Part shown: piece after piece, positions 3,479 through 19,312 of the stretch
How the letters are laid out: each line of letters opens with the position of its first letter
Numbering within the stretch: the stretch's first letter is position 1
NCBI GenBank assembly: GCA_964487515.1
Contig: CAZARJ010000001.1
Coordinates: forward strand, 1,295-42,242
Direction of reading: 5' to 3'
DNA: 40,948 nt
Source of the DNA: an uncultured Conexibacteraceae bacterium
Lineage (GTDB): Bacteria > Actinomycetota > Thermoleophilia > Solirubrobacterales > 70-9
The notes under the pieces: generated by a model
The model's input: only the letters and a program-made list of their open reading frames with translations
The model's database searches: none
What the model was told of the DNA's origin: nothing
Translations under genes and position numbers: made by a program

Positions 3479-4285
3479 TCAGGTCTCGATCCCGGCCGAG
3501 CGGCGTCGCGAGCGGTTCGCGGCCAAGGCCAAGATCATGATTGCCGTCGTCATCGCCAGCACCAGCGTCGAGGCGGACGCGATCGTCGGGTCGACGTCTT
3601 CGATCGTCTGGAACATCTTCACGGGGACCGTTTGCTTGAACGGGTCCGCGAGGAACTGTGAGACCACCACCTCGTCGAAAGAGGTGATGAACGCGAACAC
3701 GGCGCCCGCGGCGAGCCCCGGGGATATCGAAGGCAGCGTGACCCGCACGAAGCTCACCCACGGTGAGGCGCCGAGGCTCGCCGCGGCGAGCTCGAGCTGG
3801 CGGTCGAAGCCGGAGAGGCTTACAAGGACGGCGACGATCACGAACGGGAGCGCCAACGCCGTGTGAGCGAGCACGAAGCCGGCCGTCTTGCCCACCAGGC
3901 TCACATCGAGCCCGATCGCGTACATGCCGACGGCGGAGACGACTAGGGGCACGATCATCGGCGCCAGCAGCAGGGCCTGAAGGACCGGCTTGCCGCGCAG
4001 GCGGCTGCGGTCCAGCCCGAGCGCGCAGGCGGTCCCGAGCACGAGGGTGACCACGACGACGATGAGCGCGATCTCGACCGAGTTGACCAGCGCGTTGCGC
4101 CAAGCGCTGTCGGTGAACAGGTTCGAGAACCACTGCAGCGACCAGGACTCGGGCGGGAACTCGAACGTCTGCTTGCCGGTGAAGGCGAGCGGGATCACGA
4201 TCAGCACCGGCGCGATCAGCCAGACCGCGACCAGGCCGCCGGCGGCCCGCAACATGACGCTGCCGAAGCGGCGCGACGCCATCAC
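3479..4285 (-). CDS. ABC transporter permease (PotC-like)
   Basis: 268 aa, multi-pass hydrophobic protein. It has an EAA-like loop (AASLGASPWVSFVRVTLP). The start overlaps the stop of the upstream permease. Confidence 0.9.
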   Translation of the reverse strand: MMASRRFGSVMLRAAGGLVAVWLIAPVLIVIPLAFTGKQTFEFPPESWSLQWFSNLFTDSAWRNALVNSVEIALIVVVVTLVLGTACALGLDRSRLRGKPVLQALLLAPMIVPLVVSAVGMYAIGLDVSLVGKTAGFVLAHTALALPFVIVAVLVSLSGFDRQLELAAASLGASPWVSFVRVTLPSISPGLAAGAVFAFITSFDEVVVSQFLADPFKQTVPVKMFQTIEDVDPTIASASTLVLAMTTAIMILALAANRSRRRSAGIET

Positions 4286-5214: not shown

Positions 5215-5246
5215 TCGCCTCGGTCGAATCGCGTTCGCTCAGCCGC

Positions 5247-6347
5247 TCAGCCGGAGAGCAGCGCCGTGTAGCGCTGCGATACCTCGTCGTAGTGCTTGGC
5301 CCACCAGTCCTGATCGGCGGTGAACGCGTCGTCGGCGTGCGGGCCGGAGACCACGTCCACCTGCTTCGCTGCGTCCGACCAGTTGTCGGGCGTCTCGCCG
5401 CCGGTCGCACCCGGGTACGGAGGCGCCGCCGGACCGATCTTCTGGTTCACCTCGGGCTGCAGGACGTAAGCGATCCATGCCTTCGCCGCCTCGGCGTTGG
5501 GCGCGTCCTTGATCAGCGCCAGCGTGCCCGAGCCACGACCAAGGAAGCCCTCGGCGAGCCCGTAGTCGGCACCCTTGTCCAGTGCGTCGATGTAGTTGCG
5601 CGTCGTCGCCATGTAGATCGGCGCGTCGCTGTTGACCATCCCGTCGACGACCTGACCGGAGCTGTCGAAGCCGCCGAGATCATCCTTGATCGTCTCCAGC
5701 TTCGCGAATGCCTCGTCGATGTCGATCGGGTACGGATCGGTCGGATCGGCCCCGTTCGCGATCGCCGCGCACTCCACCGCGCCGGCGGCGGCCACGTAGG
5801 TCCAGATCACGCGCTGGCCGGGGAACTTGTCGACGTCGAAGAAGTCCTCGCAGTTCTGTGGCCCACCGTCGGGAAAGGCGCTCTTGTCGTAATACATGCC
5901 GATCCCGTAGGCGTAAGTCGCAACGCCACACTCGCTATTGATGCGGAGCGGCTCCAGCACGTTCTCCTGGGAGACCCCGGTCTCCTCGAATAGCGTGCCG
6001 CACTGCGGCCCGACCATGAAGCCATCCGCGTCGGCGACGTCGTAGCTGACGTTGCCACTCTTCACTTGCGCTTCGAGCTTCGCGTAGTCGGTCGGGCTGT
6101 CGAGGGTAAACTCGGCGCCGGTCTCCTCGGTGAAGGGATCCATCCAGACCTTCTTCACCTGCTCATCCAGATAGCCGCCGAAGCCCATATAGCTGATCGT
6201 CGTCCCGCTGAAGTCACTGGACGACGCTGCGTCCGCGTCGGCCGAGCCGTTAGTGGAGTCGCCGTCGTCGCCGCCGCACGCCGCCAGCACTAGGGAAAGC
6301 GCCAACGCCGCCACGACCGCGAGCACGCGGCTGAACTTTGAACTCAT
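5247..6347 (-). CDS. ABC substrate-binding lipoprotein, PotD/PotF family
   Basis: 366 aa. It has a signal peptide with a lipobox (LVLAACGG) and family-1 extracellular solute-binding features. AGGAGGAGAGGAA lies directly upstream of the ATG. Confidence 0.9.
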   Translation of the reverse strand: MSSKFSRVLAVVAALALSLVLAACGGDDGDSTNGSADADAASSSDFSGTTISYMGFGGYLDEQVKKVWMDPFTEETGAEFTLDSPTDYAKLEAQVKSGNVSYDVADADGFMVGPQCGTLFEETGVSQENVLEPLRINSECGVATYAYGIGMYYDKSAFPDGGPQNCEDFFDVDKFPGQRVIWTYVAAAGAVECAAIANGADPTDPYPIDIDEAFAKLETIKDDLGGFDSSGQVVDGMVNSDAPIYMATTRNYIDALDKGADYGLAEGFLGRGSGTLALIKDAPNAEAAKAWIAYVLQPEVNQKIGPAAPPYPGATGGETPDNWSDAAKQVDVVSGPHADDAFTADQDWWAKHYDEVSQRYTALLSG

Positions 6348-6615
6348 TTCCTCTCCTCCTGATCATGTCTGAACCCATGAGGCTTCCGGCATCTCGCGCA
6401 CTGGCGCGGCCGGTCTCGATCAAGCTCCCGAGTCCCCCAGCGTTCGTGCGATCAGGGCTGTTGCGGACCCTCTCGCGTGACTGCCGGGGTGAGGGATGAT
6501 AAATCGATAAACCACGACCGTAGCCTACTAGGTCCTAACCGAATTCGCCAGATCAAACCGGCGCGCGACATCGATTTGGTCCCCAGTCTCAAGCAGATCG
6601 GGAAAGCGCTCCCTC

Positions 6616-7506
6616 TCATGTCCCCCCGTCTTCAAATCCCGCTGGCGGTCGAAGCTCGACCCGGGGTGCCCGCTCATCGGCGAGCGTCGCCTCCGCAAGT
6701 TGGGCGCACGTCGTAAAGCGGACGTCGCCCCGCTCCAACCCCGCTTCGATCACCGTCCGCAGCGCCTCGACCCGGCCTGCGCGACCGGAGAGGAATGGAT
6801 GGCACGTGAGGATGAACGTGGCCCCGTGACGTCGCATCGCGTCGAGCTCCGCCACCCACATCCTGGCGACCGTGGAAGGCGCCGCGATCGTCTGCCCGAT
6901 CTCGGGCCGGGGCAGGAACGCGTACAGCTCCCAGTCGTCCAGCGACCAGTGAGGCGGTAGCTCGGCGATCTCGCCCGCCCCGGTCCGGAGCACATACGGG
7001 GAGTCGCTGTCCATGAGACTCGAGTCATAGATCAGGCCGTACTCGGCAATCAGCGACGGCGTTAACCAGCTCGCCTCCCACATTGCCGCTCGGTGCCCGC
7101 GCGGCTCGGCCCCGTGCCGCGCCAAGGCCTCGAGGGCCAGCTCGAAGTCACGGCGCTCCTCGTCCGATCCGAGATCGACCGGGCTCCGATGGCTGTGGGA
7201 ATGATGCCCCACCTCGTGGCCCGCCGCCAGGATCTGCTCGACCGCATCGGGGTGGCGTAGCGCCGTGACCCCGGGGACAAAGAAGGTCGCCCGCAGCCCG
7301 TACTCGGCCAGCAGGCCGATCAGCCTCGGCACCCCAACCCGCGGCCCGAACGCCTGATGCGTCATCGCCATCGCGTTCTCGCGATGCTCCGGTCCGGCGA
7401 CCAGGATCGGCGCCTCGGCGTCGACGTCAAAGGTGAGCAAGGCGGAGGTCTTCCCGCCTCCAGCGCTCGCCGGCCCTCCCCGCTCGTTCTCTTTCGCCTC
7501 GGTCAT
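6616..7506 (-). CDS. Polysaccharide deacetylase / NodB-homology family hydrolase
   Basis: NodB motifs are present: TFDVDAE, FFVPG, and HEVGHHSHSH. I prefer ATG 7506 (MTEAKENE...) because AAGGAGG lies 6 nt upstream. The listed ORF extends to 7584, which would overlap the ACAD stop. Confidence 0.8.
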   Translation of the reverse strand: MTEAKENERGGPASAGGGKTSALLTFDVDAEAPILVAGPEHRENAMAMTHQAFGPRVGVPRLIGLLAEYGLRATFFVPGVTALRHPDAVEQILAAGHEVGHHSHSHRSPVDLGSDEERRDFELALEALARHGAEPRGHRAAMWEASWLTPSLIAEYGLIYDSSLMDSDSPYVLRTGAGEIAELPPHWSLDDWELYAFLPRPEIGQTIAAPSTVARMWVAELDAMRRHGATFILTCHPFLSGRAGRVEALRTVIEAGLERGDVRFTTCAQLAEATLADERAPRVELRPPAGFEDGGT

Positions 7507-7580
7507 CTCAGCCTCCTTCGCCCGCGTGACAGCCGTCCTCGCCGCCCCGGCGCCCGGGGCACGGCCCGTCGCGACCACGG

Positions 7581-8738
7581 TCACCCGCGGCCGATCTCAC
7601 GCGAGATAATCAACCTCAGAATCTCGCTTGTGCCCTCGCCGATCTCGTCCAGCTTCGCGTCTCGCATCCAGCGCTCGACCGGGTAGTCGCGGGAGTATCC
7701 CCAGCCTCCCAGGGTCTGAACCGCACCCCAGGTGCAGAACATCGACGTCTCGGAGGCGAAGACCTTGGCCATCGCGGGCTCGGACGGGTTCTCGGCACCT
7801 TGGTCCAGCCGCCGGGCCGCTCGCCAGACGAGCAGCCTGGCGGCGTCGATCCGGGTCAGCATGTCGGCGAGCCGGAAGCCGATCGCCTGATGGTCGATGA
7901 GCCGCTTGCCGAACGTCTGCCGCTCGCGCGTGTACTCGCGCGTGTACTCGTAAGCGGCGCGCGCGAGGCCCACCGATCCTGCCGCGATCAGCGTCCGCGA
8001 GCGCTCGAAGGCGCGCATCAGGCCTTTGAAGGCCTCCCCCTCGGCACCGAGCCTGCGGTCGTCGGGGACGAACAGATCGTCGAGGAAGAGCTCATTGCAG
8101 ATCATCCCGCGCTGACCCATCTTCTTCATCGCGGGCCCGACCGTGAGCCCTTCGTCGTCGCGCTCGACAACGAACGCGGTCACCCCGCCGGAGCGCAAGG
8201 CTGGGTCGGTGGTCGCAAAGATGACGATGTAGTCAGCCACCTCACCGTTCGAGATCCAGCTCTTCTGGCCCCGCAACCGGTAGCCACCCTCGACCCGATC
8301 GGCGCGGGTCTGCATCGCGGCCGCGTCAGAACCCGCCCCCGGCTCGGTGATCGCGATCGCCGTCGGCTTCGCATCGGGACCGGTCACCCGCGGCATCCAG
8401 CGCTCCTGCTGCTCCTCGGTGCCGAGCATCAGGATCGGCAGGCAGTGAAAGCCGTTCGAGGTGATTAGCTGCCCCAGGCCGACATCACCATGGCATAGCT
8501 CCTCGTAGACGAGGGCGCTCGTGAAGACATCGGTCAGGCCGCCACCGCCCCAGCGCTCCGGGATCATGAACGTCGTCAGCCCGATCTCGCTCGCCTGTTT
8601 CCAGAGATCCCAGGCCATCATGTGATCGGCCTCGTCGATCTGCGCCGCCAGTGGCCGAATCTGCTCCTCCGCAAAGCGCCGGCAGAGTTGGCGGATCTCT
8701 TCCTGCTCGTCGGTCAGCTGAACCAGTCCAGCATCCAT
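7581..8738 (-). CDS. Acyl-CoA dehydrogenase
   Basis: ACAD fold across the whole length: [36 protein letters not shown], and the C-terminal [11 protein letters not shown] 8738 has GGAGGAG 9 nt upstream. The listed ORF starts at a TTG at 8756. Confidence 0.85.
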
Positions 8739-8774: not shown

Positions 8775-8786
8775 CAAACCGATTTG
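8775..8786. promoter_or_regulatory. Candidate LacI-family operator (CAAACCGATTTG) in the divergent ACAD/lacI region
   Basis: 12-bp near-palindrome with a CG centre; 5 of 6 positions pair. It shares the 10-mer CGATTTGGCG with the site at 16900. It lies just upstream of a TAGGGT -10-like hexamer (8791-8796). Confidence 0.4.
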
Positions 8787-8814: not shown

Positions 8815-9843
8815 ATGGCACAGAGGGGTAACAGGATCACGATCCAGGACGTCTCGCGCCGCGCGGGGGTGTCCGCCACGACGGTTTCGCATGCCCTTAA
8901 CGGCCGGGGCCGGGTCGGGACCGAGACGCGGGAGCGTGTGCTGCGCGCGGCGCGCGAGCTCGGCTACGTGGCGAACCCGATCGCGCGGGCACTGAAGAGC
9001 GGCAACTCGCGCACCCTCGTCGCCGAGCTCCCGGCGACTACCGAGGCAATCGGACTCGACAGCGCTTTCCTGCGCGACGTGATCGTCGGCGCTGCCGAAC
9101 GTGCGATCGAGGCCGGCTACCTGCTCGCGATCACCAGCCGGTCCTCTTCCTCCACCCAGGTTCTGCCGCAGCATGAGGGAGTGCTGGTCGTCGATCCGGT
9201 CGGCTCCGACTCCCTTGCCAAGGAGGCGCGCGAAGCCGGGCGTCCCGTCGTCACCGTCGCCCGCTTCGCCGAGCACCCCACGGGCGTCACCGCGGTCGAC
9301 GTCGACTATTCGCGCGGCGTCCGACTGATTCTCGATCAGCTCGCCGAGGCTGGCTACTCGCGCCCGGCGCTGCTTACGACGTCGCAGCCATTCTCGTTCG
9401 CGGTCGCCTGCGAGGCCGGATATCAGGAGTGGTGCCGCGAGAAACGAGCCCGTCGCATCGTTCGTCGCGCCCCCAGGCAGCCCTCAATCGAGAGCGGGCG
9501 CGCCGCTGTCCGGGATCTGCTGCGCCTCAAGCGGCTGCCCGACGCGATCGTCACCGCCACCGAGCCGCTCGCGATCGGTGCACTGCGGGGACTCGCGGAG
9601 GCTTCGCGGAGGATCCCGGACGAGATCGGCCTCGCTTGCGCGACCGACTCCGAGCGTTTGCGCTCGGCGCTCGTTCCGGTCACCGCGCTCGACGTCCACC
9701 CCGCGGCGACGGGACGGCGCGCGATCGAAGCCCTGATCGAACTCGTCGCCTCCGAGGGCAGGGTGAAGCTCCCCGATCTGATCGAGATGCCGACCAAGCT
9801 CAACGTCCGGGCCTCGACGATGCCCGCGCGGCGCCCGGACTGA
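8815..9843 (+). CDS. LacI family transcriptional regulator
   Basis: 342 aa. N-terminal HTH ITIQDVSRRAGVSATTVSHALNG, followed by a periplasmic-binding-protein-like effector domain. Confidence 0.9.
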   Translation: MAQRGNRITIQDVSRRAGVSATTVSHALNGRGRVGTETRERVLRAARELGYVANPIARALKSGNSRTLVAELPATTEAIGLDSAFLRDVIVGAAERAIEAGYLLAITSRSSSSTQVLPQHEGVLVVDPVGSDSLAKEAREAGRPVVTVARFAEHPTGVTAVDVDYSRGVRLILDQLAEAGYSRPALLTTSQPFSFAVACEAGYQEWCREKRARRIVRRAPRQPSIESGRAAVRDLLRLKRLPDAIVTATEPLAIGALRGLAEASRRIPDEIGLACATDSERLRSALVPVTALDVHPAATGRRAIEALIELVASEGRVKLPDLIEMPTKLNVRASTMPARRPD

Positions 9844-9940: not shown

Positions 9941-9959
9941 CAAATCGTTTTGGTAGAAT
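9941..9959 (+). promoter_or_regulatory. Candidate LacI operator (CAAATCGTTTTG) overlapping an extended -10 (TGGTAGAAT)
   Basis: Near-palindrome at 9941-9952. TGGTAGAAT at 9951-9959 lies 23 nt upstream of the ATG at 9982. This argues that the upstream part of listed ORF 9916.. is non-coding. Confidence 0.4.
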
Positions 9960-9981
9960 TGCGTCCCGACGCCGCCCTGCC

Positions 9982-11553
9982 ATGCAGATCGAGCCTCAGC
10001 CAACCATCGCGGACCTGTTCGAGCACCTCGCGGCGCAAGCGCCCGAGCGGCTGCTCGTCACGCACGACGAGTTCGAGCTGACATACGGCGAGGCGGTAGA
10101 GCGGGTCGAGGAGCTGGCGGGCGCCTTGCTCGCGTCCGGAGTCGGCCACGGCGACCGGGTCGCCGTCTACAGCCCGCCCCACGCACAGACCCTGCTCATC
10201 TACCTGGCCACGGCGTCGATCGGCGCGATCTTCACCGGCCTGAGCCCGAAGCAGAGCGTCGACGAGATCGAGCGGGTGATCCGCGATGCGGAGCCCCGTC
10301 TGCTCTTCTTCGTCGGCCCGCTGGAGGACGAGCACGCCGGCAAGCTCGCCGAGCTCGAGCGGCGCCTGGAGGGCGGGCCCAAGCCGGAGCTGATCGCGCA
10401 GGAGGCGAGCGCCGGGCGGCCCTGGCCGGCGATCCACTCGTTGTTGCGCGATCGCCGTGCCTCCACCGCCGAGCATGCCGCGGCCCGGCGCGCGATCGGT
10501 CCCCGTGACCCCGTCGCGATGGTCTACACCTCGGGCTCCACCGGCCCCGCCCGCGGGGCGCTGCTCGTCAACGGGCCGATGGTCCGCTCCTACACGATCC
10601 AAGCGGACCACTGGTACGACGAGCCGCCCGTCGGAGTCGCCGACCTCCCGATCCATCACCTTGGCTTCGTCGGGGACAACTGCACCTCGCTGCTCGCCGG
10701 CGGTGGAACGATCCACATCATCGAGCGCTGGACGCCGGAGCGGATCCTGGAGCTGATCGAGCGCCGGCGGCTGACCTTCTGGTGGACGCAGACGACGATG
10801 CTGCTGCTCGCGAGCCGCTCCGAGCGCTGGGATGCCACGGACTTCAGCAGCCTGCGCCGGATCGCCTTCGGCGGGGCTCCGATCACCGAGGCGCTGCGCG
10901 CCAAGCTGGTTGCCACCGGCATCCCGCTCGGGCACGGCTACGGGATGACGGAGGTGCACGGCAATGCCACCTATGTGGACAACGACGCGCCGATCGACGT
11001 GATCACCGGAACCGTGGGCCGCGGCGACCACCGACTCGAGGTGATCGTCGCCGACGACGAGGGCCGCCGCTGCCCCATCGGCACGCCGGGCGAGATCCTG
11101 ATCCGCGGGGAGACCCTGTTCGGCGGCTACCGGCTCGCCGACGGCACGATCGACCCCGCCCGCGACGCCGACGGCTGGTATCACACCGCCGATCTGGGAG
11201 TGGAGCGGCCGGACGGCAATCTCGAGCTCGCCGGGCGCAAGGACGACATGTTCAAGTCGGGCGGCTTCAACGTCTACCCGCGCCAGATCGAGCAAGTTCT
11301 GGAAGGCCACGAGGGGGTCTCGGTGGCGGCGGTGATCGACATTCCCGACTCGACTTGGAGCCGCGTCGGCCAAGCCTACGTCCTGCTCGCGCCGGGATCG
11401 CGGGTCGACGAGGAGACGTTGCGCTCCTACAGCCGCGCCCGGCTCGCCAACTACAAGGTTCCAAAGCGCTTCGAGCTTCGCGCCGAGCTGCCGATGCTGC
11501 CCAGCGGCAAGGTCGACAAGGCGGCTTTGCGGCGCGAGGTCGGCGTCGGCTGA
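9982..11553 (+). CDS. AMP-dependent synthetase/ligase (acyl-CoA synthetase family)
   Basis: Adenylation motifs are present: MVYTSGSTGPARG, GYGMTE, WYHTADLG, GRKDDMFKSGGFNVYP, and a C-terminal PSGKVDK. Start taken at MQIEPQ (9982); the listed ORF begins at 9916. Confidence 0.85.
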   Translation: MQIEPQPTIADLFEHLAAQAPERLLVTHDEFELTYGEAVERVEELAGALLASGVGHGDRVAVYSPPHAQTLLIYLATASIGAIFTGLSPKQSVDEIERVIRDAEPRLLFFVGPLEDEHAGKLAELERRLEGGPKPELIAQEASAGRPWPAIHSLLRDRRASTAEHAAARRAIGPRDPVAMVYTSGSTGPARGALLVNGPMVRSYTIQADHWYDEPPVGVADLPIHHLGFVGDNCTSLLAGGGTIHIIERWTPERILELIERRRLTFWWTQTTMLLLASRSERWDATDFSSLRRIAFGGAPITEALRAKLVATGIPLGHGYGMTEVHGNATYVDNDAPIDVITGTVGRGDHRLEVIVADDEGRRCPIGTPGEILIRGETLFGGYRLADGTIDPARDADGWYHTADLGVERPDGNLELAGRKDDMFKSGGFNVYPRQIEQVLEGHEGVSVAAVIDIPDSTWSRVGQAYVLLAPGSRVDEETLRSYSRARLANYKVPKRFELRAELPMLPSGKVDKAALRREVGVG

Positions 11554-11623
11554 CCCGTCTCTTACCACCACCCCCCGCCACCTCTCTGCTCGCTCCGGGG
11601 TGGCTCAGGCTCGTGATACGCGA

Positions 11624-12583
11624 TCAGCGACCGGCGCGAGACCGCGCCAGGGTGCTGATCAGGTGATAGGCGGCGTTCGCGGCCGCCATCGCGGTCAGGT
11701 TCGCCACGTCGTAAGCAGGTGCGACCTCGACCACGTCGGCGGAGACGATCCGCTCGCCATGCGCGTCCGCGACCCCGGCCAGCAGGCGCTGCAGCTCCCG
11801 CGGCGTGAGGCCACCGATCTCCGGGGTCCCGGTGCCGGGCGCGAAAGCGGGATCGAGGACATCAACGTCGACGGTCACGTAAACGGGCCCGCCGGCGGCC
11901 ACCTCCCGCACCGCCTCGAGGGCGCCGTCGACGCCGTCGCGGTCGACCATCTGCGCCGTGACGGCGGTGAAGCCGAGCTCCCGGTTCTCATCCAGGTCGT
12001 TCTCGGCGTAGAGGGAGCCCCGGAGGCCGACCTGGACCGAGCGCGCGGGGTCCAGGGTGCCCTCCTCGACCGCACGCCGGAACATAGTTCCATGCGTCAG
12101 GTCGGCGCCAAAGTATGAGTCCCATGTATCAGTGTGGGCGTCGAGCTGGATCAGTCCCAGTGGCCCATGGGCGGCCGCCGCCGCACGCAACAGCGGCAGG
12201 GCAACCGAGTGATCTCCCCCGAGCCCGACCACCGCGGCGCCGCCCTCGTGAAGGGCCCGGGCCGCGTCCTCGATCGCTGCATGTGCCTCGATCATGTCCA
12301 CTGGGTTGAGGGCCGCGTCGCCGGCATCGGCCACCTGGACGGTGTCGAACGGGGAGACGCCGAGAACGGGGTCGTAGGGACGCAGCAGCAACGATGCCTC
12401 GCGTACCGCCGAAGGCCCAAAGCGCGAACCCGCGCGGAAGGTGGTCGCGCCGTCGTAAGGCGCCCCAAGGATCCCGATGTCGACCGTCTCCACGTCCTCG
12501 ACCCGGGGTAGGCGGGCGAACGTCCTCAAACCGGCGAAGCGGGGCACGATCGCCGCATCCACCTGTCCACGCGGCACGCTCAT
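11624..12583 (-). CDS. Ureohydrolase (agmatinase / guanidino-acid hydrolase family)
   Basis: Arginase-fold Mn-binding motifs: GGDHSV, LDAHTD, and VTVDVDVLDPAFAPGTGTPE. Start is at MSVPRGQ (cat at 12581-12583) and overlaps the upstream stop (ATGA). The Arg-rich 108-aa extension of the listed ORF looks non-coding. Confidence 0.85.
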   Translation of the reverse strand: MSVPRGQVDAAIVPRFAGLRTFARLPRVEDVETVDIGILGAPYDGATTFRAGSRFGPSAVREASLLLRPYDPVLGVSPFDTVQVADAGDAALNPVDMIEAHAAIEDAARALHEGGAAVVGLGGDHSVALPLLRAAAAAHGPLGLIQLDAHTDTWDSYFGADLTHGTMFRRAVEEGTLDPARSVQVGLRGSLYAENDLDENRELGFTAVTAQMVDRDGVDGALEAVREVAAGGPVYVTVDVDVLDPAFAPGTGTPEIGGLTPRELQRLLAGVADAHGERIVSADVVEVAPAYDVANLTAMAAANAAYHLISTLARSRAGR

Positions 12584-12996
12584 CGCTCGCCTCCAGAGGT
12601 GGTGAAGACCGGAAGGCGCCCGCCGCCATCGCACTCGTCGAAACGCACGCGCAGTGGCATTCCGGCCTCGATCGCATCCAGCTCCGGCGCCTCGATCGTG
12701 CTCACGATCCGCACGCCCTCCGCGAGTTCCACGAGACCGACCGCATAGGGGATCTGATCGGCGAGCGCCGGATCCAGGGGAACGTGGACAACGACCCAGC
12801 TGTGCACGACGCCGTCGCCGCTCGCCGTCCGCCACCGGGTTTTCGCCGATCCGCACGCCGGGCAACACGGGCCCGGCGGCCAGCGCGGCGTCTCGCAATC
12901 CGCACAACTGGGCAGGCGCAGCTCTCCGGAGTCGCAGCCTTCCCAGAAGGGCGCGGTGTCAACATCGCGCTCGGCAGTCGGCAAGCCGCTCAGCAT
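12580..12996 (-). CDS. Zn-ribbon/OB-fold protein (DUF35 family)
   Basis: Four-Cys ribbon (CADCETPRWPPGPCCPACGS) followed by an OB-fold region (VVHSWVVVH...GLVEL). Start MLSGLP at 12996 lies 2 nt after the thiolase-like stop. Confidence 0.8.
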   Translation of the reverse strand: MLSGLPTAERDVDTAPFWEGCDSGELRLPSCADCETPRWPPGPCCPACGSAKTRWRTASGDGVVHSWVVVHVPLDPALADQIPYAVGLVELAEGVRIVSTIEAPELDAIEAGMPLRVRFDECDGGGRLPVFTTSGGER

Positions 12997-12998
12997 GC

Positions 12999-14144
12999 TC
13001 AGGCCTCCCTTCCCAGCAGCACCGCCGACGCGGTACCCGCGGAGGCGCAGCACGACAGCACCGTGCCGGCGTCGTCGACTTGGACCGCGGCGGTGCCGCG
13101 CAGCTGTCTCACCGCTTCGAGGACGTGCGAGAGCCCCTGTACGTAGGCCTCGGAGAGGTTGCCGCCGTGGGTGTTCACTGGCAGCTCCCCGCCGTGCTCG
13201 ATCCGGCCGCCCTCGACGAACGCGCCTCCCTCGCCGGGCGCGCAGAAGCCATAGGCCTCGAGCGCCATGATCACGAACGGGGTGAAGTGGTCATAGACCA
13301 TCACGGCGTCGATGTGCTCGGGTCCGAGTCCCGTACGCTGGTAGAGATCGGCAGCACAGTGCTCGGCCTCCGAGCGGTCGAGATCGGGGCGGAACACGAC
13401 GCCCGCGCCCCCCGGGCCGGAGGCCTGGGCGCCGCCGAGCACGTAGGCGGGCCGATGTGGTCCTCCGAGCGCGCGCTCGGCGCTCGTCACGACCAGGGCG
13501 CAGGCCCCGTCGCTCTCGATGCAGCAGTCGAGCAGGCGCAGCGGGTCGGCGATCATCCGCGACGCTTGGTGGTCGGCGAGCGTGATCGGCTCGCGCATGA
13601 TTGCGTTCGGGTTCTGGGCGGCGTGCTTGCGCATCGCCACCGCGACGGCGCCGAATTGCTCGCTCGTGGTGCCGTAGCGGACCATGTGCCGGCGCGCGAG
13701 CTGGCCGAACTGGATCACGGGCGCGACCATCCCCCAGGGGACCTGGAACGCCTCTATCCCGCCCACCGTGCGCGCGGTCTCCCGGTCCCCCGCCTGACCG
13801 ATACGCCGGCCGGAGCGCCCATTCAGCGATCGGTAGCAGACGACGGTCTCAGCGGCCCCGGCGGCGATCGCGGCGGCGGCGTGCATGACGACGGCATTGC
13901 CGGCCGGCCCCCCGTCCCCCGCCTGGCTCATCCAGCCGAGGTTGCTCAGCCCGAGGTGAGTCGCGAGCTGTAGCTCGTCGATCTCGTCCCAGTCGTAGCG
14001 GACGACGCCGTCGACGTCTGCCAGCGAGAGGCCGGCATCGTCGACTGCGGCGCCGACGGCCTCGCAGGCGAGCGCGAGCTCGGTCCGGCCGGAGTTCTTC
14101 GAGTACTCCGTCTGGCCGATGCCGACGATCGCGGCGCTCGCCAT
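12999..14144 (-). CDS. Thiolase-fold protein of the SCP-x / lipid-transfer (Ltp) type, lacking the canonical Cys-His-Cys residues
   Basis: Ltp-like N-terminus (MASAAIVGIGQTEYSK), LDCCIESDGACALVV, and NTHGGNLSEAYVQG in place of the thiolase GHP motif. Start at 14144 overlaps the MaoC stop by 1 nt (TGATG). Confidence 0.85.
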   Translation of the reverse strand: MASAAIVGIGQTEYSKNSGRTELALACEAVGAAVDDAGLSLADVDGVVRYDWDEIDELQLATHLGLSNLGWMSQAGDGGPAGNAVVMHAAAAIAAGAAETVVCYRSLNGRSGRRIGQAGDRETARTVGGIEAFQVPWGMVAPVIQFGQLARRHMVRYGTTSEQFGAVAVAMRKHAAQNPNAIMREPITLADHQASRMIADPLRLLDCCIESDGACALVVTSAERALGGPHRPAYVLGGAQASGPGGAGVVFRPDLDRSEAEHCAADLYQRTGLGPEHIDAVMVYDHFTPFVIMALEAYGFCAPGEGGAFVEGGRIEHGGELPVNTHGGNLSEAYVQGLSHVLEAVRQLRGTAAVQVDDAGTVLSCCASAGTASAVLLGREA

Positions 14145-14605
14145 CAGCCTGCCTCCGTGCCGGCGAGCATGAACTTCTCGAACCCGTCGGCGAGCACCGT
14201 CCCGTCGTCGGCGACAATCTCGCAACTCAGCGTGACCACGCCACGATCGGGCTTCGAGGCGCTGCGGCGCAGATCCTCGACCCGATAGCGGACATGGATC
14301 GTCGTCCCCGGATAAGCGGGGGCCCGGAAGGCCCGCTCCATCTCAAGGTAGGCGAGGATCTTCCAGCGGTCGATCTGCGAGCGCAACCCGCTCTGAATCG
14401 TGACCAGCAGCCAGCCCTGAGCGATCCTGCCGCTGAGATCGGTCGACTCGCGGACGAAGACCTCGTCGGCGTGCAGGGGTGAGTAGTCGCCGGTGATCGC
14501 CGAGAAGCTGACGATGTCGGCCTCGGTCAGCGTGCGGCGGACCGACTCGAACGAGTCACCGACGGCGAGGTCGTCGAAGCCCACGTCCTGTCCTGTGTCA
14601 GCCAC
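14144..14605 (-). CDS. MaoC-like (R)-specific enoyl-CoA hydratase, single hot-dog
   Basis: 153 aa. Hydratase motif FSAITGDYSPLHADEVF. GTG start has GGAGG 6 nt upstream and overlaps the upstream gene by 8 nt. Confidence 0.85.
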   Translation of the reverse strand: MADTGQDVGFDDLAVGDSFESVRRTLTEADIVSFSAITGDYSPLHADEVFVRESTDLSGRIAQGWLLVTIQSGLRSQIDRWKILAYLEMERAFRAPAYPGTTIHVRYRVEDLRRSASKPDRGVVTLSCEIVADDGTVLADGFEKFMLAGTEAG

Positions 14606-15059
14606 CTTGGCCCTCCACCTCCGAGTCGAGCAGCATCACGTCGGCGCCGGTCATGACCTCTTCGCCGTCCTGGTTCTGGACCGTGACAGTCAGCGTCACC
14701 ACCACGGCGGTCGGCCGGCTGCGACTGGACCGTACTCCGGCTACCGTGTAGCGGCAGTGGATGGTGTCGCCAGCGCCGACCGGGGCGACGAAGCGCCGTG
14801 CCGTGTTCAGGTAGGAGATGACCGGCCAGTCGTCGAGCTGCGAACGCAGCCCGGTGACGATCGAAGCGATCATCTGCCCATGGGCGATCCGGCGGCCGAA
14901 GTGCTCGCGCGCGAACTCCTCGTCTACGTGTAGCGGGTTGAAGTCGTTCGAGAGCCCCGCGTAGTTGACGATGTCGGCCTCGGCGATCGTCCGCCGGGCC
15001 GTCACGAGCTCCTGGCCCGTCCGGATCTCGGCCACCGGGATGATCCGCGGCCCGCTCAC
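14598..15059 (-). CDS. MaoC-like enoyl-CoA hydratase, single hot-dog (second subunit)
   Basis: Hydratase motif YAGLSNDFNPLHVDEEFA. I prefer GTG 15059 (VSGPRI...) because GGAGG lies 8 nt upstream. The listed ORF start at 15098 would overlap the DUF1989 gene. Confidence 0.8.
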   Translation of the reverse strand: MSGPRIIPVAEIRTGQELVTARRTIAEADIVNYAGLSNDFNPLHVDEEFAREHFGRRIAHGQMIASIVTGLRSQLDDWPVISYLNTARRFVAPVGAGDTIHCRYTVAGVRSSRSRPTAVVVTLTVTVQNQDGEEVMTGADVMLLDSEVEGQGG

Positions 15060-15078
15060 CAAGTCGCCTCCGCGCGTT

Positions 15079-15699
15079 TCATGCCGGCACCACTTCAAGC
15101 TCGGTCACGCCGCCCTCGGCGTTGATCGGCCAGTCGTCTAGGCACAGGTCGTACGGGCAGGAGGAGACCACGCAGACCAGATCGATCAGCGCCTCGAGCA
15201 CAACCGAGCCGCCGGGAGGGACGGGGTTCGGATAGTTGACCAGCCGCTGCGAGGCGTCGATCTCGGTGTGGGTGAAGAAGTTGACGGGCTGGGGGACGAC
15301 GTCGATCTCGTACCCGCGAGCCGCCATAGCCTCGCGCAGGTTGTCAGAGCAGTTGCGATGCGGGCCCTCATGGCCGAGCTGCTCGTAGCGCGCCTGATCG
15401 CAGGCGGCGATGAACATGTCGTGCGCTCCTCCCGCGCGGTCGGCGATCAACCGCAGCATCGGGCGGCGGCGGCGGCTGAGCAGTTCCTGGCCCTCGCGCG
15501 GCGTCATCGTCCGCGTCCACGTCCACGTATGGCTCGGTGAGAGCCAGTCGCCCAGGTCATGCGCGTCGAAGGCGAAGAAATCCGCAGCCTGGGCCCCGGC
15601 CGGAGTGCGCAGCTCGAAGCGTTCACCCGCGACGACGTCGAAGGCACGACCCTCCGCGGCCGGGATGACCAGCGTCTCGCGCGTGCCGGAGAGGCCCAT
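15079..15699 (-). CDS. DUF1989 (urea-carboxylase-associated / carboxyguanidine-deiminase-like) protein
   Basis: 206 aa, recognised as DUF1989-type from the overall sequence pattern (e.g. FFAFDAHD, MFIAACD, NFFTHTEID, VSSCPYD). Start overlaps the ACAD stop by 1 nt (TGATG). Confidence 0.8.
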   Translation of the reverse strand: MGLSGTRETLVIPAAEGRAFDVVAGERFELRTPAGAQAADFFAFDAHDLGDWLSPSHTWTWTRTMTPREGQELLSRRRRPMLRLIADRAGGAHDMFIAACDQARYEQLGHEGPHRNCSDNLREAMAARGYEIDVVPQPVNFFTHTEIDASQRLVNYPNPVPPGGSVVLEALIDLVCVVSSCPYDLCLDDWPINAEGGVTELEVVPA

Positions 15700-16922
15700 C
15701 AGTAGCTCCTCGGCAGGCCGCAGCGCTCGGCGATGAAGTTGCGCGCCATCTCGTTCGAGATCGGCCCCGAGACCATGTCGCGGGCGTCGCGCAGATAGCG
15801 CATCATGTCCGCCTCTTCGGTGAGCGCGAAGCCGGCCATCGTGCGCATGCCGCAGTCGGTCGCCCGCACCGCGGCCTCGCCGGCCGCGTGCTTGGCGACC
15901 GCTGCCTCGACCGCGCAGTCCTCTCCCCCCGCCTCGAGCGCCGCCGCCCGCTCGCTCAGCAGCCGCGCGCCCTCGAGGTCGATGTAGGTCTCCGCCAGTG
16001 GATGCTGGACGGCTTGATAGGCGCCGATCGGCCGCCCGAAAGCCTCACGCTCGAGCGCATATCCCTTAGCGTCCTCGAAAGCCGCGCCGCCGATCCCCAG
16101 CGCCATGTAGGCCTGCAGGTTGCGCTCATGATTGAGCGTGCCGACGAGGGAGCGGAACCCGGCGCCGCGCTCACCGATCAGCGCCCCCTCAGGAGCCTCG
16201 GCACCATCGAGGTAAATCTCGGTCGTACCCGCGGCGCGCAGGCCCGCCATCTTCAGGCGCCGCACCTCGATCCCAGGCTGATCGCGCTCCAGCATGATCA
16301 GCGACAGTCCGTCGCTCTTGCGGCCGCCCTCGGGCACGTCATCGGTCCGCGCCAGGAAGACGATCACGTCCGCGTCCGCCGCAAGCGTGATGTAGAGCTT
16401 CTGGCCGCTCAGGCGCCAGGTGCCGTCACGCAGCTCGGCCCGGGTCCGGAGGTTGTTCATGTCCGTGCCCGTGTCGGGCTCGGTGAGCCCGAAGGAAAGG
16501 AGTGCCTCCCCCCGGGCCAGCCCCGGCAGGATGCGCTCGCACTGCTCCGGCGTTCCCTCCGAGCGCATGAAGCGCGCCGCCATCGAAACGACCATGTAGG
16601 CGGCGGCTAGCGAGGCGTAACGAGCCCCGAGCTCCTCGATCACCGCATAGTCGAGCCGCACGTCCGCATCCTGGCCTCCGTGCTCCTCGGGAACGAGTAG
16701 CCCAGTGACACCGAGCTCGCCGAGCTTCGGCCACAGCTCGCGTGGGATCTCACGCGCCGCATCCAGCTCGCGCACGCGCTCCCGAGGAAGCTCCTCGTCG
16801 AGGAAGCGGCGTACGCTCTCACGCAGCAGCCGCTCCTCGTCAGCGACGCTCGCCCCCTCAACTTCCGGCCTCGGTCCCAAGCTCTCCGTCCTTGAGTGAC
16901 TAAACGATTTGGCGCTGGTCAT
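15699..16922 (-). CDS. Acyl-CoA dehydrogenase
   Basis: ACAD fold: EERLLRESVRRFLDEE, GLTEPDTGTD, QKLYITLA, and a C-terminal GPISNEM. Start is ATG 16922, or TTG 16880 (GGAG 4 nt upstream). With the TTG start, the operator-like site at 16900 would lie in the leader. Confidence 0.85.
   Translation of the reverse strand: MTSAKSFSHSRTESLGPRPEVEGASVADEERLLRESVRRFLDEELPRERVRELDAAREIPRELWPKLGELGVTGLLVPEEHGGQDADVRLDYAVIEELGARYASLAAAYMVVSMAARFMRSEGTPEQCERILPGLARGEALLSFGLTEPDTGTDMNNLRTRAELRDGTWRLSGQKLYITLAADADVIVFLARTDDVPEGGRKSDGLSLIMLERDQPGIEVRRLKMAGLRAAGTTEIYLDGAEAPEGALIGERGAGFRSLVGTLNHERNLQAYMALGIGGAAFEDAKGYALEREAFGRPIGAYQAVQHPLAETYIDLEGARLLSERAAALEAGGEDCAVEAAVAKHAAGEAAVRATDCGMRTMAGFALTEEADMMRYLRDARDMVSGPISNEMARNFIAERCGLPRSY
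16900..16911. promoter_or_regulatory. Candidate LacI operator (CTAAACGATTTG) at the head of the 7-gene operon
   Basis: Shares CGATTTGGCG with the 8775 site. A weaker relative, TTATCGTTTTTG, lies at about 16990-17001 in the same divergent region. Confidence 0.35.
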
Positions 16923-17153: not shown

Positions 17154-18041
17154 GTGGATCTACCGGCGGGCATCTCCTTGGCGCTCGGCGCGGTGCTCGT
17201 CGTGCAGCTCGGTCATGCACTCGCCGTCGTGCTCCTGGAACGAATCGGGGTGATGATGACCGCGGGCTTCCGGGCCGGCTTCTCGGCCCTCGTCCTGCTA
17301 CTCGCCTCGCGCCCAGCGGTCCGCTCCCTCAGCCGCTCGCAGCGCCGCCTGGTCGCGATCTTCGGCTCCAACTTCGTCGTCCAGTCACTCGCGCTCTACG
17401 TCGCGATCTCGCGCATCCCACTCGGGATCGCGCTCTCGATCGCCTTCCTGGGCCCGCTCGGCACCGCCGTCTGGCGCGGACGCCGAGCCCGCGATCTGGC
17501 CTGCGCCGCGATGGCGCTCACCGGCGTCATCCTGCTCGTCGAAACGCCCGGGGCCGCCGGCGACGTCGATTCGGTCGGCCTGCTCGCCGCCGCGGTCGCA
17601 GCGGGCTCGTGGGCGGTCTACATCTATTGCTCGGAGCGCGCGCGCGCGACGATGCCACGGCTCGACGGGCTCGCGCTCTCGATGAGCCTGGCGGCGTGCG
17701 TGCTCGTCCCCGCGGCGTTCATCTCCGGCCCGACGCAGCCCCTGGTGCCCGGCGACATCGGCCTCGGATTCGCTACCGCCCTGCTGGCCACCGCGATCCC
17801 ATTCAGCATGGAGTCGCTCGCCCTGAGCCGGACTCCGGTGCACTTGTTCGGGATCCTGATGAGCACCGAGCCCGCAGTCGCCGCGCTGGTCGGATTCATC
17901 GCCCTCGGCCAGGCCTTACCGGCCGCCGCAGTCGCCGGTATCGCGCTCGTCGTCGCCGCCTCCGTCACCGCCACCCTCGGCGGCCGCAGGGTGACCCGGA
18001 AACAGGCGGCAACGAGGCGTTACGGTCGCCGGAGCTCGTGA
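17154..18041 (+). CDS. EamA/DMT-family transporter
   Basis: About 10 hydrophobic segments in two EamA-like halves. The start is uncertain (GTG 17154 chosen); the hydrophilic first ~85 codons of listed ORF 16896.. look non-coding. The stop overlaps the next start (TGATG). Confidence 0.65.
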   Translation: MDLPAGISLALGAVLVVQLGHALAVVLLERIGVMMTAGFRAGFSALVLLLASRPAVRSLSRSQRRLVAIFGSNFVVQSLALYVAISRIPLGIALSIAFLGPLGTAVWRGRRARDLACAAMALTGVILLVETPGAAGDVDSVGLLAAAVAAGSWAVYIYCSERARATMPRLDGLALSMSLAACVLVPAAFISGPTQPLVPGDIGLGFATALLATAIPFSMESLALSRTPVHLFGILMSTEPAVAALVGFIALGQALPAAAVAGIALVVAASVTATLGGRRVTRKQAATRRYGRRSS

Positions 18042-19312
18042 TGGAGGTACCACGGATCGACCCCGAGGCCGTGCTTGCGGACTTGGGGGAGCTGGCGGAC
18101 CGGACCGGTGGGTCCGCCGGCGCGAGACGCCTCTGCTGGACAGAGACGTGGCGCGAGGCACGGACGCTGCTCGCCGAGCGGCTGGCGGAACTCGCGGCTC
18201 CGATTGACTCCGAGGAGGACGAGGCGGGCAACCTCTGGGCGCGTCTGAAGGGCGCGGATCGCTCAGCGCCGGCCCTCGCATTCGGCTCGCATCTCGACTC
18301 GGTTCCGGCCGGCGGTCCCCTGGACGGTGCGCTCGGGACGCTGGCGGCGCTCGGCGTCCTGCGTGCCTGGAGCGACGCCGGAGCCGTCCCGCCCCGGGAT
18401 CTCGTCCTGATTGACTTCGCCGATGAGGAGGGTGCGCGCTTCGGGCGCAGCCTCTTCGGCAGCTCGGCGCTGGCGGGGACGCTCGATCCCGCTGCGCTGA
18501 GCGGATTGCGTGATGCGGGGGACATCGCGATCGGCACCGCGCTCGCCGCCCAGGGCGTGCAGCTCGAGCGGGCGCCCGAGGCGCATCGCCGCCTCGACTC
18601 GATCGCAGCCTGGCTGGAGTTGCACATCGAGCAGGGGCCAGTGCTCGACAGCGAGAGCACGAGCTGCGCGCCCGTGTCCGGATGCGCGGGGGTCGAGCGC
18701 TTGCTGCTGCGCTTCAGCGGCCAGGCCTCGCACGCCGGGACTACGCCGATGGAGGTGCGCCGCGACGCGGGGCTCGCGGCCGCAGCCACCGCGCTCGCCG
18801 TCGAGCGGATCGCGACCCGCCAGGGCGGAGTCGGCACCAGCGGCTCGCTCGCGCTCCAGCCCGGCGTCGTGACCGCCGTCGCCGGCGGCGCAGAGCTCAC
18901 AGTCGACCTGCGCCACGCGGCGGCCGGGCCGCTCGAGGCGATGCGGGCGGAGGCGCTCGCGGCGGCCGAGCGAGCGGCGGGTCGGCGGGGCTGCGAGCTG
19001 GACGTGGAGCTGCTGCAGCAGATCGCGCCGAGCCCCTTCGATCCCGACCTGGTCGCCGCAGCCGGGCGGGCTTGTGCGGCCGTCGGCGGACGGTCTGAGC
19101 CGCTGCTCAGCGGCGCCCTCCACGACGCCGCTGAGATGGCTCATGTCGTACCCACAGCTATGGTCTTCTGCGCCTCGATTGACGGGATCAGCCACGCCAA
19201 GGAGGAGCGCAGCTCCGGCGACGACCTACGAGCGGCGATCGTCGCCTTCGGAGCTCTGACAGGCGACGTCCTCGCGCAGCTCGACCGCGGGTTTATCGCC
19301 GATAACCATTGA
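18041..19312 (+). CDS. M20-family Zn amidohydrolase (allantoate amidohydrolase / N-carbamoyl-amino-acid hydrolase type)
   Basis: Start at MEVPRID (ATG 18041). Family motifs: GNLWARLKG, FGSHLDSVPAGGPLDGALG, DFADEEGARFG, and HDAAEMA near the C-terminus. Confidence 0.85.
   Translation: MEVPRIDPEAVLADLGELADRTGGSAGARRLCWTETWREARTLLAERLAELAAPIDSEEDEAGNLWARLKGADRSAPALAFGSHLDSVPAGGPLDGALGTLAALGVLRAWSDAGAVPPRDLVLIDFADEEGARFGRSLFGSSALAGTLDPAALSGLRDAGDIAIGTALAAQGVQLERAPEAHRRLDSIAAWLELHIEQGPVLDSESTSCAPVSGCAGVERLLLRFSGQASHAGTTPMEVRRDAGLAAAATALAVERIATRQGGVGTSGSLALQPGVVTAVAGGAELTVDLRHAAAGPLEAMRAEALAAAERAAGRRGCELDVELLQQIAPSPFDPDLVAAAGRACAAVGGRSEPLLSGALHDAAEMAHVVPTAMVFCASIDGISHAKEERSSGDDLRAAIVAFGALTGDVLAQLDRGFIADNH

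Follow-up and report, generated by a model that had tools for sequence, protein, structure and literature searches.

The closest described system to the locus analysed here is the igr module of steroid side-chain degradation, which in Mycobacterium tuberculosis (Rv3540c-Rv3545c) encodes the acyl-coenzyme A (CoA) dehydrogenase ChsE1-ChsE2, the hydratase ChsH1-ChsH2 and the thiolase-fold aldolase Ltp2. In the ChsH1-ChsH2 pair only ChsH1 is catalytic, and ChsH2 carries a DUF35 domain (PMC11321319). In Ltp2 the catalytic base is Tyr294 of a YDHF motif and the acid is Tyr344, and His296 contributes to the oxyanion hole; the motif has been contrasted with the HDCF of SCP2 thiolases and the YDCY of the bile-acid aldolase Sal (PMC12329534). 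Here we describe a stretch of 40,948 nucleotides (nt) from an uncultured Conexibacteraceae bacterium (assembly GCA_964487515.1, contig CAZARJ010000001.1, positions 1,295 to 42,242 of the forward strand), referred to below in its full length as the window, in which an Ltp2-like gene and a DUF35 gene share a predicted operon with genes for an acyl-CoA dehydrogenase (ACAD), two MaoC hydratases and a ureohydrolase. The locus is read tentatively, and with somewhat less than even confidence, as a regulon under LacI control that would catabolise a small omega-guanidino carboxylic acid, with an Ltp2/DUF35 aldolase reused outside steroid metabolism.

The gene at positions 12999..14144 (minus strand) encodes a predicted Ltp2-like thiolase-fold retro-aldolase. 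Its best solved relative is Ltp2 of T. curvata (6OK1_A; E 5.5e-99 over residues 3-379). The scores of true thiolases are far below that of 6ok1_A, and the weaker matches include 7pxp_C and 6esq_A. In the alignment to 6ok1_A, the segment VYDHFTPF falls on Tyr294/His296 and SEAY on Tyr344, the nucleophile loop (AGDGGPAGNA) contains no cysteine, and the position occupied by HDCF in SCP2 thiolases reads YDHF, the acid/base Cys being replaced by His. The YDHF motif, Tyr344 and the Cys-less loop are invariant in seven orthologs and 20 database relatives. A first-pass annotation of this DNA had proposed a Cys-less thiolase fold of the Ltp2 type on the strength of two peptides, MSQAGDGGPAGNAV and NTHGGNLSEAYVQGLSHVLEA, both of which are present in the protein; alignment of the product of 12999-14144 with Ltp2 and with thiolases confirms that the catalytic Cys residues are indeed absent and that the Tyr/His/Tyr set is kept. 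On the NCBIfam lipid-transfer protein model PRK07855 the protein falls below the trusted cut-off (444.2 vs 469 bits). The adjoining gene (12580..12996, minus strand) encodes a free-standing DUF35 protein composed of a rubredoxin-like Zn ribbon and an OB fold (zf-ChsH2 and OB_ChsH2_C), which among solved structures is nearest to the Ltp2-binding DUF35 domain of ChsH2 (6ok1_B, E 2e-24). These alignments support the prediction of an aldolase pair of the Ltp2/ChsH2-DUF35 type, with the DUF35 protein as the expected partner of the aldolase.

Both genes lie within a set of seven minus-strand open reading frames (ORFs) in 11624-16922 that overlap or nearly abut one another. Read on the minus strand, the stop codon of the ACAD gene ACAD1 and the start codon of the DUF1989 gene are joined in the TGATG at 15699 (CTACTGATGGGC), the DUF1989 stop codon (15079-15081) is separated from the GTG of MaoC-A at 15059 by a 19-nt gap that includes GGAGG, and MaoC-A overlaps MaoC-B by 8 nt at 14598-14605 (GTGGCTGA). 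A further TGATG at 14144 combines the MaoC-B stop with the Ltp2-like start, the Ltp2-like TGA is followed by GC (12997-12998) and then by the DUF35 ATG, and the ATGA at 12580-12583 links the DUF35 stop to the ureohydrolase start. GGAG or GGAGG is found a few bases upstream of six of the seven starts, the exception being the ACAD1 ATG at 16922. A Pfam scan gave Acyl-CoA_dh_N/M/1, DUF1989, MaoC_dehydratas (twice), Thiolase_C_1, zf-ChsH2 with OB_ChsH2_C, and Arginase, all above gathering thresholds. The earlier domain calls (ACAD, DUF1989, two MaoC, thiolase-fold, DUF35 and ureohydrolase) and each of the junctions that had been proposed were borne out. Co-transcription of the seven genes is inferred from the overlaps and from the lack of convincing internal terminators. 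Scans for sigma-70 promoters and intrinsic terminators returned nothing above shuffle expectation, which is unsurprising because the window has a G+C content of ∼70%. Between the convergent ureohydrolase and ligase genes lies a G+C-rich hairpin (11554..11623; -33.7 kcal/mol, z -2.06) that is only modestly better than shuffles and may perhaps act as a bidirectional terminator.

The association of the aldolase cassette with the ureohydrolase was assessed by tracing Ltp2-like homologues of 69-77% identity to their contigs and by a genome scan, with tblastn maps of all loci (designated here by L and a number). Eight lineages offer enough context, namely the window, L169, L170, L010, L006, L171, L008/L009 (Rhodococcus sp. 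NPDC057529) and L007/L089; a scan of metagenome contigs contributed one further ortholog, L089, a near-duplicate of L007. The AMP-ligase, ACAD1, MaoC-A, MaoC-B, Ltp2-like, DUF35 and ACAD2 genes are common to all eight. An arginase-family gene occurs within 10 kb of the cassette in seven of the eight lineages vs none of 157 other Ltp2-like loci (Fisher p 1.4e-11), in agreement with the synteny that had been expected from the window. Two architectures can be distinguished. In the LacI-regulated form (window, L010, L169 and L170) the order is ACAD1-MaoC-MaoC-Ltp2-DUF35-ureohydrolase, with a convergent ligase gene and a LacI gene divergent from ACAD2-NodB; in the PucR-regulated form (L006, L171, L007 and L008) it is (ureohydrolase)-ligase-ACAD1-MaoC-MaoC-Ltp2-DUF35-ACAD2-(NodB), with the ureohydrolase leading the operon in L006 and L171. 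The ureohydrolases themselves form two sequence types that match the two architectures, with identities of 64-81% within a type and ∼51% between types. A NodB-fold gene follows ACAD2 in five lineages, and L008 has a sixth copy at another place in its cluster. Six lineages carry a PotABCD-like ABC importer, and L008 has NCS1 transporters in its place. The NodB-fold gene of L170 survives only as two short fragments (L170:6925-7223) and the L006 ligase is broken into a pair of ORFs, 251 and 300 amino acids long (aa; L006:6338-7961); these breaks may be signs of decay, through frameshifts, or assembly errors.

The ureohydrolase (11624..12583, minus strand; Pfam Arginase, 303 bits) is an arginase-family protein closest to 3-guanidinopropionase GpuA (3NIP, 294 bits) and then to guanidinobutyrase GbuA (3NIO, 260 bits), followed by the structural-genomics "agmatinase" 4dz4 (223 bits), Escherichia coli agmatinase (7lol/7lba, 192 bits) and arginases (≤95 bits). 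It is 48% identical to Pseudomonas aeruginosa GpuA, and in the alignment to 3nip its metal motifs LGGDHS, DAHTD and DVDVLDP are intact (binuclear-metal GGDH, DAHxD and DxDxxDP). The protein also passes the TIGR01230 agmatinase cut-off (222 vs 174). In GbuA, an arginine from the neighbouring subunit (R72; R105 of human GDAH) contacts the substrate carboxylate (PMC9772407). All seven orthologs conserve an arginine (LLR, residue 68) in the same general region, which is a candidate counterpart by location. The ranking of bit scores suggests that the enzyme would act on a guanidino acid rather than on agmatine.

The extent of the system beyond the seven genes is indicated by a 12-bp operator-like palindrome, CAAATCGATTTG, which, allowing up to two mismatches, occurs four times in the window where 0.22 occurrences are expected (none of 100 shuffles reaches four). 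The copies are located upstream of the ABC operon (6567..6578), in the divergent region between ACAD2 and LacI (8775..8786), 30 nt upstream of the ligase ATG at 9982 (9941..9952) and at the 5′ end of the ACAD1 operon (16900..16911). CAAATCGATTTG recurs at equivalent promoters in the three LacI-type relatives L010, L169 and L170, and additionally at the divergent ligase/MMSDH-transaminase-EamA promoter of L169, where MMSDH denotes methylmalonate-semialdehyde dehydrogenase, and at the ligase/transaminase-ABC promoter of L010; neither the PucR-type loci nor the clade-B loci contain it. The putative operator thus defines four transcription units as one predicted regulon, which takes in the gamma-aminobutyrate (GABA)-type ABC importer, ACAD2 and the NodB-fold hydrolase; in relatives it also covers an omega-transaminase and MMSDH. 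Given the shared palindrome, the cluster therefore runs from ∼2302 to 16922, and probably reaches the transaminase at the left edge of the window. The first-pass annotation had taken 11624-16922 as one operon: the seven-gene set is real, but the functional unit is larger, extending to the ligase, ACAD2, NodB-fold hydrolase, LacI regulator and ABC importer.

The predicted regulator of the cluster is a LacI-family protein (8815..9843, plus strand) that is conserved in L010, L169 and L170. The AMP-forming acyl-CoA ligase (9982..11553, plus strand), a conserved cluster member, is encoded by an ORF open from 9844, with ATG 9982 as the likely start. Paired with ACAD2 is a NodB-fold 'polysaccharide deacetylase' hydrolase (6616..7584, minus strand; start at ATG 7506 or GTG 7584), for which the best solved relative is a protein of unknown function (3rxz, E 5e-78). 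The importer (2302..6362, minus strand) was recognised by Pfam scan and PDB search as a binding protein, two permeases and an ATPase, and among solved structures the binding protein comes nearest to proteins that bind GABA (4eq7/4euo and the iGABASnFR scaffold 6dgv). At the left edge, a class-III omega-aminotransferase cut by the window edge is followed by alanine dehydrogenase (3..2155, plus strand; Pfam scan), likely a downstream amino-acid module. The L169 ortholog of this aminotransferase (AT3) adjoins MMSDH and has the same operator, and the aldehyde dehydrogenases of L006 and L169, each adjoining a class-III transaminase, score 657-688 bits on the MMSDH model TIGR01722 (cut-off 448.5). 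Taken together with a pyruvate-dependent transaminase and the alanine dehydrogenase of the window, MMSDH would constitute the classical beta-alanine or 3-aminoisobutyrate module.

Both dehydrogenases and both hydratases of the cluster retain the residues expected for catalysis. ACAD1 (15699..16922, minus strand) was identified by Pfam and by PDB and ortholog alignment; ACAD2 (7581..8738, minus strand), a medium-chain-type ACAD, has the canonical catalytic Glu (GEGT). The best PDB matches of both are generic homotetrameric ACADs, ACAD2 being MCAD-like. ACAD1 lacks the canonical C-terminal catalytic Glu, having VSGP where the T. thermophilus ACAD has GEGT, and contains a Glu within LNHER (the alternative helix-G position) that is invariant among orthologs. 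This Glu is presumably the alternative catalytic base used by isovaleryl-CoA and long-chain ACADs, by comparison with the LDLER of isovaleryl-CoA dehydrogenase. A ChsE1/E2-like heterotetramer of the two ACADs was considered and rejected, each having its own conserved catalytic Glu. The start of ACAD1 is ambiguous (ATG 16922 or TTG 16880). The palindrome would fall in codons 4-8 of a gene starting at ATG 16922, and alignment with orthologs begins only at residue 17-28. Translation may therefore start at TTG 16880, which would place the operator in the leader. MaoC-A (14598..15059, minus strand) and MaoC-B (14144..14605, minus strand) are predicted (R)-specific enoyl-CoA hydratases, identified by Pfam and by PDB and ortholog alignment, in which the Asp/His dyad (SNDFNPLH and TGDYSPLH, respectively) is kept across all orthologs. 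Their closest solved relatives are 4ffu and the PaaZ hydratase domain, not ChsH, the ChsH1/H2 structures being absent from the PDB matches of both at E≤1e-4.

The most likely function of the regulon, as judged from these assignments, is to shorten a CoA-activated omega-guanidino acid by two carbons and then to release urea. In the proposed sequence, the guanidino acid would be taken up by the GABA-type ABC importer and converted to its CoA thioester by the AMP-ligase, an ACAD would introduce a 2,3-double bond, and the MaoC hydratases would add water at C3. Retro-aldol cleavage of the resulting 3-hydroxyacyl-CoA by the Ltp2-like/DUF35 pair would then yield acetyl-CoA and a guanidino-aldehyde two carbons shorter, which, once oxidised, would be split by the GpuA-like ureohydrolase to urea and an omega-amino acid. 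The class-III transaminase would pass the amino acid on, with alanine dehydrogenase recycling pyruvate, and in the relatives the semialdehyde would be converted by the CoA-acylating methylmalonate/malonate-semialdehyde dehydrogenase. Such a route would make chemical sense in that a protonated guanidinium masks the amine, so that the CoA ester would not lactamise, and in that an aldolase avoids a beta-keto-guanidine that would be expected to cyclise. The C3 end module favours an odd-chain substrate and the best guess is therefore 5-guanidinovalerate (expected from homoarginine), which would give 3-guanidinopropionate and then beta-alanine; 4-guanidinobutyrate, derived from arginine, is a possible alternative. 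The first-pass annotation had envisaged a CoA-dependent retro-aldol route for a guanidino- or ureido-substituted acid, and of this proposal the Ltp2/DUF35 pair, the lack of steroid genes and the synteny of the ureohydrolase stand, while the DUF1989 gene on which it also drew is not conserved.

Several observations weigh against this scheme. No aldehyde dehydrogenase for the guanidino-aldehyde is evident in the clusters, where the only Aldedh proteins are of the MMSDH type, and the scheme gives no role to ACAD2 or the NodB-fold hydrolase, although both are conserved. Both ACADs and both MaoC proteins look catalytically competent, which hints at two dehydrogenation/hydration steps that the scheme does not explain. 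L007/L089 has the cassette with no ureohydrolase within 10 kb, and the chain length of the substrate is a guess. An acidic loop of the Ltp2-like protein (YDWDxIDE; D51, D53, D56 and E57) was considered as a sign of a cationic substrate and set aside: it differs from T. curvata Ltp2, but is equally conserved in a clade of 62-67% identity with a different gene context.

The two halves of the pathway could operate in the opposite order, the ureohydrolase acting first and the CoA cassette degrading the remaining carbon skeleton. 5-Guanidinovalerate, for example, would pass through 5-aminovalerate, glutarate, glutaryl-CoA and glutaconyl-CoA to 3-hydroxyglutaryl-CoA, and retro-aldol cleavage would give acetyl-CoA and malonate semialdehyde, the latter being converted to acetyl-CoA by MMSDH. 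With malonate semialdehyde as a direct aldolase product, the presence of MMSDH and a class-III transaminase within the regulon would be readily explained, and the leading position of the ureohydrolase in the L006 and L171 operons would suit this order; both ACADs are also sub-threshold matches to the non-decarboxylating glutaryl-CoA dehydrogenase model, although they match many other ACAD models no less well. However, the clusters encode no glutarate-semialdehyde dehydrogenase, and L171 has the whole cassette with neither transaminase nor MMSDH nearby. We regard this order as unlikely, albeit with a real chance of being correct. Clearly less probable is a substrate in which an acyl group is conjugated to agmatine or arginine, its amide being split by the NodB-fold hydrolase, with the ureohydrolase acting as an agmatinase on the amine part and the ligase, ACADs, MaoC proteins and aldolase degrading the acyl part (a (dihydro)hydroxycinnamate, for instance, to an aldehyde and acetyl-CoA). 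The NodB-fold hydrolase would thereby gain a role, the ureohydrolase does score above the agmatinase cut-off, and the importer has a polyamine-type architecture with a TOBE ATPase. Yet the ureohydrolase is nearer to guanidino-acid hydrolases than to E. coli agmatinase and the binding protein is nearest to GABA binders; moreover, no cluster contains aromatic-aldehyde or ring-cleavage genes, and MMSDH and the transaminase would in turn be left without a role.

The two remaining alternatives concern the aldolase cassette itself. That it is an ordinary steroid side-chain (igr) operon might be supposed from the close homology of the Ltp2-like and DUF35 proteins to steroid enzymes, and some database members have been automatically named 17-hydroxy-3-oxo-4-pregnene-20-carboxyl-CoA lyase. 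No steroid genes (cyp125, kstD, ksh or hsa-type) were found, however, in Pfam scans of the called ORFs of the 41-kb window, as the first-pass annotation had also noted, or in the gene lists of the eight related loci. The catalytic Glu present in each ACAD, the two catalytic MaoC proteins with no fused DUF35, the sub-cut-off PRK07855 score and the consistent linkage to a ureohydrolase and an amino-acid-type importer likewise make this very improbable. Least credible of all is that the Ltp2-like protein is a true DUF35-associated beta-ketothiolase, as in BbsAB or the archaeal thiolase/HMGCS complex. The fold, the DUF35 partnership and the weaker matches to 7pxp_C and 6esq_A are shared with such enzymes, but the nucleophilic Cys is missing, the acid/base Cys is replaced by the His of YDHF, the two catalytic tyrosines of Ltp2 are kept without variation, and the gene lists of the related loci show no 3-hydroxyacyl-CoA dehydrogenase in any cluster.

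The DUF1989 gene (15079..15699, minus strand; 206 aa; PF09347, 139 bits vs a cut-off of 27) had been placed in one operon with the cassette by the first-pass annotation. The domain is real and the gene lies in the same predicted operon, but synteny identifies it as a lineage-specific insertion that does not belong to the conserved set. None of the seven other lineages with the cassette has it; apart from the window it occurs only in a close relative, L176, a short contig with DUF1989 in the same position (identities: ACAD1 93%, DUF1989 75%, MaoC-A 80%, MaoC-B 77% and Ltp2 83%). Since its G+C content at third codon positions matches that of its neighbours, it is regarded as an established sublineage-specific addition and an accessory gene. 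Homologues of ∼60% identity are numerous, mostly alphaproteobacterial and found in unrelated gene contexts; an attempt to assign a function by association was abandoned, as five homologue contexts (L004/L005, L172-174, L175 and L177) share nothing. The closest solved relative is 3ORU, of unknown function, followed by the DUF1989 domain of the trimethylamine N-oxide demethylase Tdm, in which C263, C279 and C343 bind Zn, H276 and D346 bind Fe, and D198 is a further ligand (PMC12560246); all six align to identical residues in the DUF1989 protein. The suggested kinship with carboxyguanidine deiminase subunits fared poorly, the protein scoring far under the cut-offs of TIGR03424 (59.9 vs 284.7 bits) and TIGR03425 (45 vs 206 bits), and Pfam scans of the called ORFs detected no urea carboxylase in the window.

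Divergent from the ACAD1 operon are genes for an EamA-family transporter and an M20 hydantoinase/carbamoylase-family amidase (17193..19312, plus strand; TGATG overlap at 18041), whose membership of the system is uncertain. The amidase scores 316 bits on TIGR01879 (cut-off 204) and could handle ureido acids such as N-carbamoyl-beta-alanine; an EamA gene is also found in the MMSDH-transaminase operon of L169. By analogy with CgdAB, the metal-binding DUF1989 protein would be a guanidino-to-ureido deiminase and the amidase a carbamoylase, the two having been added in the sublineage of the window as a urea-free bypass parallel to the ureohydrolase. This elaboration, in which the Ltp2/DUF35 aldolase would, outside steroid catabolism, cleave the C-C bond in a masked-amine beta-oxidation of omega-guanidino acids, is speculative and rather improbable; if true, it would provide a first function for the widespread single-domain 3ORU-like DUF1989 subfamily.

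Other features of the related lineages and of the window were also recorded. In L171 (GCA_038907025.1; L171:14400-20456) the genes immediately after the cassette are those for a phage-type integrase, a Gp49/HTH pair and restriction-type proteins (AIPR and XhoI), which hints that the cluster borders a mobile region. Genes for RidA, a flavin amine oxidase, a thiamine pyrophosphate (TPP)-dependent decarboxylase-like enzyme and a second NCS1 transporter lie beside the Rhodococcus cassette (L008:13808-19594), and this set could convert an arginine/homoarginine-type amino acid to a guanidino-aldehyde or acid one carbon shorter. The TPP enzymes of L006 and L008 were tried as a link to keto-arginine and rejected, their scores on the 5-guanidino-2-oxopentanoate decarboxylase model (183-213 bits, cut-off 500) being no better than those on several other TPP families. 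The next-closest Ltp2-like clade, the one of 62-67% identity, is larger (L011-L026, L033 and L090-L102; e.g. L013:3086-16056), occurs in Solirubrobacterales, Thermoleophilia, Gaiellaceae, Microvirga and Comamonadaceae in a non-steroid context, and has the order Ltp2-DUF35-(isochorismatase)-single MaoC-Amidohydro_2-AMP-ligase beside a fused double family-III CoA-transferase and a LIV-type ABC system; it appears to be a further aldolase module, as yet uncharacterised, outside steroid metabolism. More than 80 Dehalococcoidia/Chloroflexota loci from the genome and metagenome scans (L027-L088 and L103-L127) have an Ltp2-like gene (∼52% identity) followed by DUF35, with two ACAD genes just upstream in some (L027, L028, L031 and L032) and a tandem NodB-fold gene pair ∼4-5 kb upstream in many. 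Elsewhere in the window, a glyoxalase-fold ORF immediately precedes a 537-aa protein with two tandem Thy1 (ThyX-type thymidylate synthase) domains, an unusual duplicated architecture (19260-21350, plus strand). A toxin-antitoxin-rich stretch (25067-29481) carries Fic/DOC (25067-26146), a PIN protein with an RHH antitoxin (26255-26889) and an HTH protein with a HipA kinase (27953-29481), and the lowest G+C of the window (0.666, at 24-26 kb) coincides with its left part. A second catabolic cluster (30390-40948) comprises a class-III transaminase (minus strand), a GntR/FCD regulator, an enolase paralog, a glycerate-kinase-like protein (DUF4147/MOFRL), an ABC ATPase, two solute-binding proteins, a permease and the start of an FAD amine oxidase.

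In the literature searched, which covered DUF1989, guanidinovalerate or guanidinobutyrate with acyl-CoA, homoarginine catabolism and non-steroid DUF35 aldolases, no description was found of this system, of the cassette combined with a ureohydrolase, of guanidino acids linked with acyl-CoA processing, or of Ltp2/Sal/DUF35 aldolases outside steroid side-chain degradation, consistent with the first-pass view that the combination is not a described pathway. What would be new, with function predicted from sequence, is the application of igr logic to a new substrate class. If correct, the tentative guanidino-acid assignment would extend Ltp2/Sal aldolase chemistry to small nitrogen-rich acids and give the bacterial breakdown of arginine, homoarginine and guanidino acids a further branch that depends on CoA, and many metagenome Ltp2-like genes, some of them automatically annotated as steroid lyases, are probably unrelated to steroids. 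The ligase, two ACADs, two hydratases, aldolase/DUF35 pair, NodB-fold hydrolase and ureohydrolase constitute a testable enzyme set, and one cultured isolate, Rhodococcus sp. NPDC057529, has the cluster (contig JBHVEY010000045.1).

Among characterised systems, the window cassette shares with the igr module (including the T. curvata pair of 6OK1) an Ltp2 homologue that keeps Tyr294/His296/Tyr344 and lacks Cys, a partner protein of the DUF35 type, an operon that also holds ACAD and MaoC genes, the lack of a hydroxyacyl-CoA dehydrogenase and, as predicted, the logic of dehydrogenation, hydration and retro-aldol cleavage. The likeness to ChsE/ChsH/Ltp2 drawn in the first-pass annotation is accordingly close for Ltp2 and DUF35 but looser elsewhere: each of the two ACADs contains a catalytic Glu, though not at the same position, the Asp/His dyad is retained in both MaoC proteins, in contrast to the inert ChsH2 of igr, DUF35 is encoded on its own and not as part of a MaoC protein, and a steroid gene context is replaced by linkage to a ligase, ureohydrolase, NodB-fold hydrolase and GABA-type importer. 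The proteobacterial bile-acid hydratase-aldolase Shy-Sal (PDB 9MYR) is similar in that a thiolase-fold aldolase is bound to a DUF35 domain and cleaves a secondary 3-hydroxyacyl-CoA to an aldehyde and acetyl-CoA, as predicted here, but Sal has Tyr302/Cys304 (YDCY) and a Gln at the Tyr344 position where the window protein has the Ltp2-type YDHF and Tyr, and the match is much weaker (9myr_A, E 3e-36). The benzoylsuccinyl-CoA thiolase BbsAB (7PXP) and the archaeal thiolase/3-hydroxy-3-methylglutaryl-CoA (HMG-CoA) synthase/DUF35 complex (6ESQ) also combine an SCP2-type fold with a DUF35 Zn-ribbon/OB partner; unlike the window protein, they keep the catalytic cysteines, and they need a 3-oxoacyl-CoA. 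Tdm and CgdAB (UAAP1/UAAP2) are DUF1989 enzymes, Tdm sharing with the window protein the PF09347 fold, three Zn-binding Cys and the His/Asp Fe ligands, whereas the latter is a single 206-aa protein that has no GcvT domain, lies far below the UAAP1/UAAP2 cut-offs and has no urea carboxylase nearby. The proposed DUF1989/M20 bypass would relate to the ureohydrolase as agmatine deiminase with N-carbamoylputrescine amidase relates to agmatinase. GpuA and GbuA of P. aeruginosa share the arginase fold, the Mn-ligand motifs and the downstream transaminase logic with the window ureohydrolase, for which urea release from an omega-guanidino acid is likewise expected; the Pseudomonas hydrolases, however, act directly on the free acid with no CoA steps, whereas the window ureohydrolase sits in an acyl-CoA processing operon.

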